20,762 nucleotides of DNA from a virus (IMGVR_UViG_2718218128_000001), one strand, 5' to 3'; positions 9,917-13,607 are shown, counted from the stretch's first letter. A program made the numbers and translations. Notes: generated by a model from the sequence alone, not told the origin.

Positions 9917-10963
9917 ATGGGTAAACAAAAATCCCGTAAAGCCAACGCACAAAAGGCCAGCAAACCACAACAACTGACCGCCAGCGCACCGCCAAAAACG
10001 ACAGCGTTCACCTTCGGCGAGCCGGTGCCGGTACTCGATAAGCGCGACATTCTGGATTACGTCGAATGCATCAGTAACGGCAAATGGTACGAGCCGCCGG
10101 TCAGCTTCTCAGGGCTGGCAAAGAGCCTGCGCTCTGCCGTGCATCACAGCTCGCCAATTTATGTTAAGCGTAACGTGCTCGCGAGCACCTACATTCCGCA
10201 CCCGTTGTTATCCCGTCAGGATTTCAGCCGCTTTGCGCTCGATTATCTGGTGTTCGGTAACGCCTTTCTTGAGCAGCGCCACAGCGTCACCGGCCAGTTA
10301 ATCAAACTGCTGGCCTCGCCAGCCAAATACACCCGACGCGGAGTCGACGATTCGATTTTCTGGTTTGTGGAAAACTTCACCCAGCCGCACGAGTTCGCGC
10401 CTGATACCGTGTTTCACCTGCTGGAGCCCGACATTAATCAGGAGATTTACGGTCTGCCGGAATATCTCAGCGCGCTTAATTCCGCTTGGCTGAATGAATC
10501 CGCGACGCTGTTCCGCCGCAAGTATTATCAGAACGGCGCGCACGCAGGCTACATCATGTATGTGACTGACCCGGCGCAAAGTGCGACCGACGTCGAATCG
10601 CTGCGCGAGGCGATGCGTAACTCGAAGGGACTCGGCAACTTTAAGAACCTGTTTTTCTACGCCCCCGGCGGAAAACCGGACGGCATCAAAATCGTGCCAC
10701 TGAGCGAGGTCGCCACAAAGGATGACTTTTTCAACATTAAGAAAGCCAGCGCCGCCGACCTGATGGACGCGCACCGCGTACCGTTCCAGCTCATGGGCGG
10801 CAAGCCCGAGAATATCGGTTCACTCGGTGACGTTGAGAAGGTGGCAAAGGTATTTGTGCGCAATGAGCTGTCGCCGCTACAGGACAGGTTCAGGGAGGTA
10901 AACGACTGGCTCGGCATGGAGGTCATCAGGTTCAAAGAGTACACCCTCGATAATCCGGAATAA
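9917..10963 (+). CDS. Q: Portal protein
   Basis: 348-aa ORF (P2 gpQ about 344 aa) downstream of P. ATG start at 9917. Confidence 0.9.
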   Translation: MGKQKSRKANAQKASKPQQLTASAPPKTTAFTFGEPVPVLDKRDILDYVECISNGKWYEPPVSFSGLAKSLRSAVHHSSPIYVKRNVLASTYIPHPLLSRQDFSRFALDYLVFGNAFLEQRHSVTGQLIKLLASPAKYTRRGVDDSIFWFVENFTQPHEFAPDTVFHLLEPDINQEIYGLPEYLSALNSAWLNESATLFRRKYYQNGAHAGYIMYVTDPAQSATDVESLREAMRNSKGLGNFKNLFFYAPGGKPDGIKIVPLSEVATKDDFFNIKKASAADLMDAHRVPFQLMGGKPENIGSLGDVEKVAKVFVRNELSPLQDRFREVNDWLGMEVIRFKEYTLDNPE

Positions 10964-10973
10964 TCACCACTCT

Positions 10974-10992
10974 AGCCGCCAGCATGGCGGCT
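10974..10992. terminator. GC-rich hairpin between convergent Q and the cargo gene (possible bidirectional terminator)
   Basis: AGCCGCC-agcat-GGCGGCT is a perfect 7-bp stem with a 5-nt loop, lying between the Q stop (10961..10963) and the convergent stop at 10994..10996. There is no U-tract, so this is weak as an intrinsic terminator. Confidence 0.3.
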
Positions 10993-10993
10993 C

Positions 10994-11719
10994 TCAATCG
11001 TGAGTGGATATTTGCGAAACAAACTCTTTAACTCCATCTCGTTCAAGTATTTTACTGTCATGGATATACTTTACGATATCCCACTCGTAGTATGTACAAG
11101 CCATTGCAACTAAAGATATTATTTTTATGTCAGTTAAGTTAACTAATGTTTCATAATAATCTTCCCGTTCAACCCCGCAATTATCTATCAACTTCACAAT
11201 CAAATAAAAGCGACGCACCACTGAAAAAATGCAATCATTAGCATCCACTTCACTTAACCACTTTGTTATTACCTCTTTTTTTACCTTGGCTTTAACTAAA
11301 ATTACAATATTATCTTCAAGATAAGTTACGGCTGCACCACTTGTAAATTCTTCGACCACCCCGTCAGTTTGTCCATCAATATCACCAACTTGAACACAAA
11401 ACCTTTCAAAGTTAGAATCCTGACATTCAACCAAATGGAAAAATCTCACTTCAAATTTTTTATACTCTTCTAAAGATTCTTGCCTTTTTACTTCATCGAT
11501 CAGGCTGGAATTAGCCTCCCTTTGAAGTTTTATTGAATTTATAAGGAGGTAAATTGTAATAAATGAAAGTATAGGGTTGACGACACCACCCAAATAATCA
11601 CCAAACTGCGCCCAAACATCAGTCTTGCTGGATAAATGTCCGTTTACTCCGAAGTTGAAGTAATACAAGGCGCACACAGCTACAATCACGCCAGCCGAAG
11701 ACAGCAACACCTTTCTCAT
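10994..11719 (-). CDS. Hypothetical membrane protein of cargo cassette: two N-terminal TM helices plus ~180-aa soluble domain; candidate effector
   Basis: 241-aa ORF with ATG start overlapping the upstream gene's stop (ATGA). Hydrophobic segments at about residues 5-25 and 44-62. The region is AT-rich, unlike the phage backbone. No family recognised by eye. Confidence 0.6.
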   Translation of the reverse strand: MRKVLLSSAGVIVAVCALYYFNFGVNGHLSSKTDVWAQFGDYLGGVVNPILSFITIYLLINSIKLQREANSSLIDEVKRQESLEEYKKFEVRFFHLVECQDSNFERFCVQVGDIDGQTDGVVEEFTSGAAVTYLEDNIVILVKAKVKKEVITKWLSEVDANDCIFSVVRRFYLIVKLIDNCGVEREDYYETLVNLTDIKIISLVAMACTYYEWDIVKYIHDSKILERDGVKEFVSQISTHD

Positions 11720-12534
11720 ACAGTTTCAACCATACGGATTAGATATTTCACCACATCACCACTTTTTACTACAACTTTGCTAACAGTAAGTTTTAGATAT
11801 GTGTAGTTATCTTGCCTGCCATTATTATTGTGTAAATTTAATGAGACCAATCTTTTTTGAGCGGCGGGTATAGCCTTTAAAGGCATGTAAAAACCAAAGG
11901 CTACTGTATCATCTTCACCTTCGATAACTAACCTACCATTTCCAGTTCTCGCATTAAATCGAGTAATAACTGCGTTAATATTAACTTGACCGGGCTTTAT
12001 TTTTGATTGTGTCAAGTTTGTAGCAGTCATTGTGTCTAACTTTGCTATTCTTTGTTTTCCAGCAGGTTTTTTATAGTTAAGTTCAACATCAAAGTTTTTT
12101 TGAAGATTTATCCTATGCATCCTTACCAAAGGTTGTCTGATACGATCAATAAGTTCATCTTCAATTTCCTCAAGCTCCTCAATAATTCCTGCAGCTTTTG
12201 GAGATAGCTCCTTAGTTTCCAGATATAGAGATTCAGAAATAAAATACCCCATGACTTCCGAGAACACAGAACGGGTCATTTTTTTTAATTCGGCAGCTAA
12301 TTCCGGCTCATTAACAATCAAGTCGAAGTTTTGACCATAAGAACTTTTAAAGCTTTGTTTGAGAACCGCTCGCGCAGGGTTAACATGAGTGCGGCGCTTA
12401 ATAATTTTTTTTCTGAGTATTGCCTCTGCTAGTATGCATGTCACCTCAGCCGTTCCAGAGAGGGTATCAAGGCCATACTCCATATCAACTTCTTGATCAC
12501 CACTTTTGATGACAACGTCATAGCTAACTTTCAT
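11716..12534 (-). CDS. Hypothetical soluble protein of cargo cassette; candidate sensor or enzymatic component
   Basis: The ORF track starts at GTG (12540). The ATG two codons in (12534) is preceded by AAGGA at 7-nt spacing, giving about 272 aa. No TM segments, and no nucleotidyltransferase or nuclease motif recognised by eye. AT-rich. Confidence 0.6.
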   Translation of the reverse strand: MKVSYDVVIKSGDQEVDMEYGLDTLSGTAEVTCILAEAILRKKIIKRRTHVNPARAVLKQSFKSSYGQNFDLIVNEPELAAELKKMTRSVFSEVMGYFISESLYLETKELSPKAAGIIEELEEIEDELIDRIRQPLVRMHRINLQKNFDVELNYKKPAGKQRIAKLDTMTATNLTQSKIKPGQVNINAVITRFNARTGNGRLVIEGEDDTVAFGFYMPLKAIPAAQKRLVSLNLHNNNGRQDNYTYLKLTVSKVVVKSGDVVKYLIRMVETV

Positions 12535-12597
12535 CGGCACATCCTTGATTTAGTAACCTTTGGTTATTATTTTTCATCTTCTACTCATTGACACCGA

Positions 12598-12626
12598 TTT
12601 TTTACACCAAAAATATCAAATTGCAA
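12598..12626 (-). promoter_or_regulatory. Candidate sigma70 promoter for the cargo cassette
   Basis: Minus strand reads TTGCAA, a 16-nt spacer, then TAAAAA, about 60 nt upstream of the cargo start codon, in an AT-rich leader. Found by eye only. Confidence 0.3.
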
Positions 12627-12642
12627 GTGTGTGCTGCGCGCA

Positions 12643-12661
12643 ATGCTTTCCCCGCCACGCC
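12643..12661. other. cos-like site (19-nt cohesive end sequence)
   Basis: Plus-strand ATGCTTTCCCCGCCACGCC is the reverse complement of GGCGTGGCGGGGAAAGCAT. That matches my recollection of the phage 186 cohesive end and differs at 2 positions from P2 (GGCGAGGCGGGGAAAGCAC). It lies in a ~450-bp non-coding GC-rich stretch, in the expected place between Q and A. Confidence 0.6.
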
Positions 12662-12826
12662 TGCCCGCTTTACGGGGCGGTTTTAATGCAGTTGCATGAA
12701 CACTCGGGATCCGCGCCAGCTCTGGCGGCGCACGGTCAGAACGGGCAACCCCTGCGAATGCAAAAGCATGCACCTGTTGCATGCACGGCTAAAAACGGGG
12801 AAATCGCGGAAAAATGGCATAAAAAA

Positions 12827-12845
12827 CCGGCATTCACGGTGCCGG
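12827..12845 (-). terminator. Rho-independent terminator for minus-strand transcription
   Basis: CCGGCA-ttcacgg-TGCCGG hairpin flanked by AAAAAA on the plus side, which is a TTTTTT tract after the stem on the minus strand. It lies downstream of the small minus-strand ORF at 12986..13177. Confidence 0.45.
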
Positions 12846-12985
12846 TTTGGGGCTGGTTTTGTCGCGATTACTGGGCGTGTAATGCGCCAATAACACTATT
12901 GAGGCACATGCTGGCAAAAATCAGCAGAAAAATCGTCGTCCACCGATTTTCATAAACGAGAGATAACATATTGATATAGATCCTT

Positions 12986-13177
12986 TTATTTGTGCATTCT
13001 AATGTGGTTTAACAGGTGTTTGATAACGACCGTAAGCTCATCTTTACTGGCTTGCTCGACCATTTTTTCGGTGTAGCTTTCCACCTCACGAGAACTCAGG
13101 TCGTTATTTGAAGCCATTACGGTCAGCTTTTTTGCCCAATCGGCAAACGGGTCTATCGATGAAAGGGAATTATGCAT
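12986..13177 (-). CDS. Small hypothetical protein (about 63 aa from the internal ATG)
   Basis: ORF with a GAGG Shine-Dalgarno-like sequence upstream of the ATG at 13177 and a terminator-like hairpin downstream. The start overlaps the divergent gene's start on an ATGCAT palindrome. No family recognised. Confidence 0.3.
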   Translation of the reverse strand: MHNSLSSIDPFADWAKKLTVMASNNDLSSREVESYTEKMVEQASKDELTVVIKHLLNHIRMHK

Positions 13178-13607
13178 GTCCAAAAACCTCGAATTATTTA
13201 ACCAGCAGACGGCGGAAATTTTTGCGGTGTTATGGGATAACTTCCCGGTGCCGCAGGTCATCACCTACGAAAAATTTAACGCCGTGCTACCTGATGACTA
13301 CTTTGACCAACTTAACTCACCGGAAATGAAAGCACTGAATCAGTTGCGTAGTGTGGTTGAGGGTACATTCACTTTTCTCAGTGAAAACGGCTACATCCAA
13401 TATGAAACAGACCATCAGACTTATTTTCGGGATGTGCGCCTGACCGAGAAAGCACTCGCCGTGCTCAACAAAAAGCCCGAGGCACTCGGCGGTAGTGAAA
13501 CGATGGGCGATAAGATTATCAGTGCGGTGAAAGACGGGACACCCGGAGTTATTGCAGGTGCGGTGACAAACCTGCTTTCACTCGGTGTCAATCTGGTAAC
13601 CAACTAA
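13176..13607 (+). CDS. Hypothetical protein, 143 aa (accessory gene)
   Basis: ATG start with a good AAGGGA Shine-Dalgarno sequence 7 nt upstream. It is on the opposite strand to the flanking phage operons and has a hydrophobic C-terminal segment (GVIAGAVTNLLSLGVNLV). No family recognised. Confidence 0.5.
   Translation: MSKNLELFNQQTAEIFAVLWDNFPVPQVITYEKFNAVLPDDYFDQLNSPEMKALNQLRSVVEGTFTFLSENGYIQYETDHQTYFRDVRLTEKALAVLNKKPEALGGSETMGDKIISAVKDGTPGVIAGAVTNLLSLGVNLVTN

Follow-up and report, generated by a model that had tools for sequence, protein, structure and literature searches.

Phage resistance through the lactococcal abortive infection (Abi) proteins AbiC and AbiP has been known for decades. 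Both proteins are anchored in the membrane, have been validated by experiment, and act as single-gene systems (PMC13064643). AbiC has two transmembrane (TM) helices and AbiP has one, and their extra-membrane domains can be superposed (review of 2026, PMC13064643). AbiP binds RNA and single-stranded DNA, requires its TM segment, and becomes toxic when a phage major tail protein is present; both proteins act after DNA entry, either on the production of capsid protein or on replication and transcription (PMC13064643). The DNA analyzed here is a viral sequence of 20,762 nucleotides (IMGVR_UViG_2718218128_000001, hereafter the window), which was annotated as an E. coli P2/186-like prophage spanning the tail and baseplate genes through to the integrase. 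Two genes on its minus strand are the subject of this analysis, GeneA (11716-12534; 272 aa, WP_073507269) and GeneB (10994-11719; 241 aa with an ATG start, WP_073507268), both of which are annotated as 'hypothetical'. It is held with modest confidence that they form a two-gene AbiC/P-type anti-phage (abortive-infection) cassette, with GeneA as the sensor or regulator and GeneB as the membrane effector. The two genes are low in GC and are carried, like a moron, within the gpA-gpQ locus of the P2/186-like prophage, a known defence hotspot.

GeneB and all 65 members of its family were without a Pfam match at E<=1, and the NCBIfam and PADLOC searches gave only a weak match to a ZorB/MotB TM model. 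GeneB belongs to phrog_8999 (E 6.7e-83), a PHROG of unassigned function, and its close homologues form 71 clusters from Enterobacterales and Aeromonas, every one of which is named 'hypothetical'. A transporter or housekeeping membrane family, which had been raised as an alternative in a preliminary description of this reading frame, was not matched. A profile of the 65 homologues was then searched against 1.84 billion representatives and retrieved 6174 proteins at E<=1e-3. The putAbiC domain (PF16872) was present in 6 of the 10 distant matches scanned (E ~1e-18), and several distant relatives also matched the PADLOC models for AbiP (to E 2.3e-13) and AbiC (to E 5.8e-9). Moreover, the hhalign comparison of the GeneB family with the putAbiC-bearing relatives gave a probability of 99.9% (E 3.9e-35) over 229 columns, covering the full length. 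The regions common to GeneB and the PF16872 proteins include a W-x-x-F-G-D-Y-x-G-G-x-x-N-P-I-L motif, a stalk, and a ...Y-F-R-x-I-Y-x-I-x-K-F-I-D... segment; the stalk of GeneB aligns with the L-Q...E-L...Q...F-E-x-T-F-F segment of the putAbiC relatives. Because of the profile search, the shared regions and the hhalign result, GeneB is placed as a divergent, distant branch of the AbiC/P (putAbiC) superfamily, a sequence-based assignment in which the link to AbiC/AbiP is transitive or profile-to-profile only and a direct PADLOC AbiC/AbiP match is absent. In the cluster of P0030, a GeneB allele with 56% identity, one protein had been named 'Phage abortive infection protein' by its submitter. The structure searches with GeneB found no solved analogue.

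In GeneB as in AbiC and AbiP, a membrane anchor at the N-terminus precedes a helical domain outside the membrane, and all are borne on mobile elements; a solved structure or an assigned fold exists neither for GeneB nor for AbiC/AbiP. However, AbiC and AbiP are single-gene systems from Gram-positive plasmids; whereas GeneB has an OB-fold partner and is found in Gamma- and Betaproteobacteria.

The 241-aa translation of 10994-11719 (minus strand) contains all of the peptide strings quoted in the preliminary description, and the two N-terminal TM helices proposed there are also well supported. TM1 comprises residues ~4-24 (11648-11710, minus strand), and its sequence is variable, but hydrophobic family-wide. 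The end of the periplasmic loop together with TM2 (residues 36-63; 11531-11614, minus strand) is the most conserved block and contains many invariant columns. It is followed by a cytoplasmic stalk (residues 64-104; 11408-11530, minus strand) and by an acidic C-terminal helical domain (residues 127-237; 11009-11341, minus strand), which equals the region covered by Pfam putAbiC in the distant relatives. The Kyte-Doolittle hydropathy in 19-residue windows peaks at 1.86 (residues ~4-22) and 1.81 (residues ~42-60), both above the usual threshold. This signal is weak for a single protein with so much V, I and L, since two or more windows of this kind also arise in 25% of its shuffles. The shuffle test is therefore uninformative for a single sequence, and was replaced by family-wide charge exclusion. 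Across the 65 homologues, only 2 of 973 residues are charged in the TM1 core (residues 9-23) and none of 1170 in the TM2 core (residues 43-60), compared with 31% outside the TM cores. The AlphaFold2 model (mean predicted local distance difference test score, pLDDT, of 87) has a helix at 2-24, an unbroken helix at 33-104, a small hairpin, and a helical bundle at 127-237. The stalk is a straight extension of the TM2 helix in this model, and residues 60-110 have pLDDT values of 93-96.

The distribution of charged residues (two K/R at the N-terminus, one in the loop versus two D/E, and four right after TM2) fits an N-in/C-in topology, and the C-terminal domain would therefore be cytoplasmic. This domain contains 34 D/E and 22 K/R (pI 4.75), in agreement with the acidic cytoplasmic soluble domain that was first described. 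The suggestion of conserved cysteines did not hold. No alignment column of the GeneB homologues has at least 50% Cys, and the retention is 8% for C99, 3% for C108, 31% for C163, 6% for C181 and 37% for C208; a metal or disulfide site was dropped as an idea since no Cys column is conserved. Conservation is instead concentrated in the periplasmic loop, in TM2 and where the stalk begins; the mean column conservation is 0.86 in TM2, 0.74 in the loop and 0.57 in TM1. The invariant positions include Y19, F23, W36, F39, G40, D41, G44, G45, P49, L51, F53, L59 and S62, and further along the protein Q66, N70, Q80, E90, R169 and W213. Residues 36-63 follow the motif W-x-Q-F-G-D-Y-x-G-G-V-x-N-P-I-L-S-F-x-T-I-Y-L-L-I-x-S. 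On one face of the TM2 helix there is a conserved stripe of polar and small residues (D41, G44, G45, N48, S52, T55 and S62), which extends to Q66 and N70. In the helical wheel of TM2, the conservation vector points to 20 degrees and the polarity vector to 347 degrees, so that the polar face is the conserved face.

The TM module of GeneB also occurs apart from the remaining protein. Residues 12-79 alone (window ~11483-11686) match a second PHROG, phrog_33781 (E 5.8e-12), and further matches to the module are found in proteins from Leptospira phage LE1 and a Shewanella Mu-like phage, which are without the rest of GeneB. The W-x-x-F-G-D...N-P module thus seems, from these matches, to be combined with differing cytoplasmic domains.

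The weak match to the PADLOC ZorB3/MotB TM model covers GeneB residues 28-84 and was seen in 55 of the 65 members (best E 3.2e-5). In both ZorB/MotB and GeneB an invariant Asp starts a conserved TM helix. However, GeneB is without a ZorA/MotA partner and without an OmpA-like peptidoglycan-binding domain, and its TM2 is predicted to run out-to-in; the TM helix of MotB runs in-to-out. Homology to ZorB/MotB was rejected, because the match is limited to the TM segment, the helix has the reverse orientation, and neither ZorA nor an OmpA domain was found. The match is better taken as a lead on an Asp-bearing conducting helix.

The TM effectors of CBASS, Pycsar and type III CRISPR systems likewise combine TM helices at the N-terminus with a cytoplasmic domain and are presumed to abort infection, and GeneB might be a second-messenger-gated effector of this kind whose synthase is encoded elsewhere. 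The preliminary description had pointed to this likeness, and also to the lack of an evident cyclase partner. The second point is confirmed, as neither the hotspot of the window nor any of the related loci contains a cyclase or synthase gene. The likeness holds for the general topology; it does not extend to the closest relatives, which are the AbiC/AbiP (putAbiC) family. Weak PADLOC matches to 'CARF1--CARF_HEPN' in 5 of the 65 members (best E 4.2e-5) and to 'SAVED4--SAVED_TM' in one member could be cited in favour of a second-messenger-gated effector. These matches are not in the window GeneB, and may be TM or coiled-coil artefacts. No SAVED, CARF or cNMP-binding domain was detectable in GeneB, and its conserved partner is an OB-fold protein rather than a synthase. 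The cyclic-nucleotide effector was rejected on the lack of both a synthase and a sensing domain, and a second-messenger-gated GeneB is considered highly improbable.

The start of the partner GeneA was set at the ATG at 12534, following PGAP and the homologue N-termini (MK(V/I)...); the longest open reading frame (ORF) starts at a GTG at 12540. GeneA belongs to phrog_13337 (E 1.4e-113), which is also a PHROG of unassigned function. Its N-terminal alpha/beta and helical domain (residues 1-147; 12094-12534, minus strand; AlphaFold2 mean pLDDT 89) is weakly DUF7946-like, and its C-terminal basic OB-fold domain (residues 148-272; 11719-12093, minus strand) is weakly DUF7947-like. In the predicted structure, the C-terminal domain is a five-stranded beta-barrel that superposes on known OB folds. 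DUF7946 aligns with GeneA residues 12-141 (E 0.12, below cutoff) and DUF7947 with residues 188-216, in the expected order; the scores of 12.8 and 14.4 bits compare with a gathering threshold of 27 each. The family matches are also weak among 30 GeneA homologues, with DUF7946 in 10 (best E 3e-5) and DUF7947 in 24, and some homologues carry precomputed DUF matches such as PF25678. No literature on DUF7946 or DUF7947 was found. The invariant residues of the N-terminal domain are F62, S65, G67, Q68, F70, E93 and H140, and the OB domain has an invariant T-R-F-N-x-x-T-G-x-G-R-L motif. GeneA is without a TM segment (maximum hydropathy of 1.18 in 19-residue windows), which indicates a cytosolic protein. 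In a search of the GeneA profile against PDB sequences, viral IL-10 appeared at E 0.054 and was rejected as a chance-level match.

The GeneA stop and the GeneB start overlap by 4 bp (ATGA). The order GeneA then GeneB was found, directly adjacent, in all 12 independent loci examined from Gamma- and Betaproteobacteria, and with the exception of one locus (L011) the junctions show an overlap or a gap of at most 12 nt. The identities of GeneA and GeneB homologues to the window pair are correlated (r = 0.84), and the family sizes are alike, with 71 clusters for GeneB and 78 for GeneA. Moreover, the OB domain of GeneA is basic (pI 9.9); whereas the cytosolic domain of GeneB is acidic (pI 4.75). The overlap, the constant order, the correlated identities and this basic-acidic pairing give indirect support to a functional link between GeneB and its upstream product, as the preliminary description had proposed; a role of the upstream product as the activating partner would be compatible with all of the findings. 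A GeneA homologue was found in none of 80 classical putAbiC prophage loci, so the partner is specific to the GeneB sub-family. The exceptional locus is in a betaproteobacterial metagenome-assembled genome. Its GeneB homologue (L011:5798-6510, E 2.7e-29) looks N-terminally truncated or frameshifted, with an ORF start 176 nt past the GeneA stop; either gene decay or misassembly may account for this.

The pairing of the two genes could also be explained if GeneB alone were both the sensor and the toxic effector, and GeneA an inhibitor or chaperone that silences GeneB until infection removes or titrates it, as in a toxin-antitoxin (TA) system. Neither AbiC nor AbiP needs a second gene, and for AbiP a phage protein is the direct trigger (PMC13064643). 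The inhibitor-first order, the translational coupling and the charge complementarity would fit a neutralizing partner, and the strict co-occurrence and co-divergence fit equally well. However, GeneA, with 272 aa, two conserved domains and invariant polar motifs, is bigger and more conserved than a typical antitoxin, and Pfam scans of the protein and its homologues found no DNA-binding autoregulator domain. Two-gene hotspot cassettes need not be TA systems; in PARIS, from the P4-satellite hotspot, deletion of either gene is non-toxic and defence is lost (PMC9122126). A TA-like arrangement is therefore regarded as somewhat unlikely. The type III TA design (ToxIN/AbiQ) was excluded since neither a tandem-repeat antitoxin RNA nor an Rfam element was present; tandem repeats were not found, and no Rfam family reached gathering level in 10900-13300.

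In the window, the cassette is the variable cargo in the cos-proximal part of the gpA-gpQ locus, which extends from the replication gene A to the portal gene Q. GeneB is convergent with portal gene Q (9917-10963, plus strand), and its reading frame is located just beyond the portal end. The GC content of the cassette is 36.7%, versus 56% in the adjoining terminase and portal genes. The 19-nt cohesive-end sequence GGCGTGGCGGGGAAAGCAT, which we take to be the 186-type cos sequence, has a single exact match at 12643-12661 (minus strand) and none in 100 shuffles, and the surrounding region 12632-12699 matches the termini of linear P2-like phage records. The cassette is therefore flanked by cos on one side and by the portal gene on the other, and would sit at one extreme end of the linear genome once packaged.

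The gpA-gpQ locus was described as a defence hotspot of P2-like phages (Rousset et al. 2022, PMC9122126), and later studies confirmed this status (PMC9519451; PMC13586616). Both WP_073507268 and WP_073507269 are listed at this locus in Table S5A of Rousset et al. 2022 (PMC9122126), each labelled 'hypothetical'. The literature search found no published test of either protein, and the main texts contained nothing on DUF7946/7947, putAbiC/PF16872, the PHROG identifiers or the two accessions, so that this table is their sole trace. The other cassettes of the locus (old, tin, the '2TM + 1TM + TIR' of phage AC1, and PD-T4/PD-lambda) share the position and the moron-like character; whereas no sequence relation to GeneA/GeneB was found with PADLOC, and the pair has no TIR, nuclease or ATPase domain. 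Some of the gpA-gpQ systems pair a cytosolic component with TM proteins that are presumed suicide effectors (PMC9122126; PMC9519451).

The locus serves competition between phages (PMC9122126), and GeneB might therefore be a superinfection exclusion protein, which would block DNA injection or an envelope step of incoming phages so that the cell survives. A small inner-membrane protein of a prophage, whose TM2 and periplasm-facing loop are highly conserved, would suit such a role. However, its relatives AbiC and AbiP act post-entry (PMC13064643), most of GeneB and all of GeneA are cytoplasmic, and an OB-fold partner has no obvious role in an entry block. This explanation is considered very unlikely.

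The same gene order was found in P2-like hotspots of E. coli, Pectobacterium and Dryocola at the same site (L003-L006, L008, L009, L015-L018). Outside these hotspots, the pair was found in integrase-flanked islands of a soil proteobacterium, Bordetella, two Betaproteobacteria and two Pseudomonas, as well as in a metagenomic contig and a 46-kb Klebsiella phage. The neighbours outside P2 include integrases, an HNH nuclease, a NERD-UvrD helicase, a Schlafen-type helicase, an Mrr-like nuclease and a TIR gene, and the pair is thus mobile among defence islands. An E. coli 186-like prophage backbone (L015-L018, 6001-7580) has the same gene order as the window at this locus, including the 143-aa and 63-aa neighbours, and its GeneA/GeneB pair at the same site has an identity of only 58% for GeneA and 56-57% for GeneB. 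It would seem that alleles have been replaced, or have diversified, at a fixed site. Many more assemblies are on record for this allele (437 index blocks).

This distribution also bears on whether the cassette is a moron without a defence role, either for envelope or stress lysogenic conversion or as an accessory of the prophage's own phage cycle. Machine-learning predictors scored only 15-32% of the unknown P2 genes as defensive (PMC13586616), and a non-defence role would be in line with this proportion. The homology to validated Abi proteins, the recurrence beside nucleases, helicases and TIR genes outside P2, the allele turnover at a fixed site, and the absence of the cassette from most P2-like phages all point to defence instead, and a non-defence moron is judged unlikely.

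Several points weigh against an AbiC/P-type defence cassette and are given together here. No phenotype is on record for the cassette or for any close homologue. The window GeneB does not reach Pfam putAbiC itself (gathering score 22 bits), and the weak ZorB TM match is the only one of either protein to a validated PADLOC v2 defence model. A toxin-antitoxin pair, or any co-inherited operon, would show strict synteny and co-divergence as well. The cassette is also rare; three alleles were found in 13, 4 and 1 of 5426 complete E. coli genomes. Neither a fold nor a function could be assigned to AbiC or AbiP, and AbiP was tied to nucleic-acid binding rather than to membrane damage (PMC13064643).

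For the favoured sensor-effector cassette, the following mechanism might be proposed. GeneA would be made in step with GeneB through translational coupling, and its basic OB domain would most likely recognize a cue from the phage, which could be a nucleic acid or a protein. GeneA might then signal by direct contact with the acidic cytoplasmic domain of GeneB. The signal would run along the continuous TM2-stalk helix, and the TM2/stalk helices of a putative GeneB oligomer would re-pack. The inner membrane could then lose its barrier or its potential via the conserved polar stripe of the oligomer; alternatively, the end step might be the trapping of nucleic acid at the membrane, as reported for AbiP. 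In either case, phage development would halt before the release of progeny. The membrane-damage step is considerably less certain than the two-gene defence function. A more specific form, in which an OB-fold sensor gates an AbiC/P membrane protein and the Asp/Gly/Asn/Ser stripe of TM2 is an ion or proton path in the oligomer, would be an undescribed two-component system, and is put forward only tentatively.

Other features were also observed around the cassette. A sigma-70-like promoter candidate (GTGTCA-17 nt-AATAAT; 12566-12594, minus strand) lies upstream of GeneA and has 9 of 12 consensus matches, on pattern only; the consensus scan gave 12 promoter-type sites in the same region versus 6.0 expected. 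Between the convergent portal gene and GeneB, a GC-rich hairpin (AGCCGCC-AGCAT-GGCGGCT; 10974-10992, assigned to no strand) was read from the sequence; it has a U-tract on neither strand, and the terminator scan did not report it. RefSeq/PGAP annotates two small overlapping 'hypothetical' ORFs across cos, 12585-12782 (minus strand) and 12686-12955 (plus strand), which are probably not genes. Two more hotspot ORFs are located between cos and DinI, one of 143 aa (13176-13607, plus strand; phrog_2266) and one of 63 aa (12986-13177, minus strand; phrog_2454). Both recur beside the alternative GeneA/GeneB allele in L015-L018, and a role in defence, anti-defence or the phage backbone is possible. 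The window is 100% identical to NZ_CP070920.1 (strain 40EC) over 10964-12700; the annotated coordinates shift by 1 base after ~13.6 kb, so the window is not identical to strain 40EC over its entire length.

Small ORFs were also seen next to the classical putAbiC genes. In several prophage contigs, a small same-strand ORF lies within ~30 nt upstream of putAbiC; the examples are L046:2515-2925, L065:2535-2954 and the similar ORFs of ~124-139 aa in L049, L051, L061, L062, L084 and L086. An ASCH domain (PUA-like, RNA-binding) was present in two of the four small ORFs scanned. The ASCH-type product could be a second small beta-barrel partner of AbiC/P, or a mere conserved backbone gene of the prophages.

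The AbiC/P family and the P2 hotspot were already known. The new elements are the proposed placement of the 'hypothetical' GeneB in AbiC/P, its apparently obligate OB-fold partner, and the two-gene architecture that would result. These suggest that the AbiC/P family reaches E. coli and other Proteobacteria in a form missed by the Pfam and PADLOC models, and that one AbiC/P sub-family gained an OB-fold partner, with the pair moving between the P2 hotspot and other defence islands. The cassette would annotate one more system for the ~19% of P2-like prophages without a recognisable defence gene (PMC13586616). It would also offer a genetically tractable form in E. coli, in which sensor and effector are encoded separately and the invariant membrane residues are few, and the AbiC/P mechanism could then be tested directly. 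If the gated conducting stripe is true, it would be the first mechanistic handle on the putAbiC superfamily, which has more than 6000 sequence clusters and a mode of action that has been open since 1992; and it would suggest that the single-gene AbiC and AbiP contain this membrane effector and have the sensor built in.

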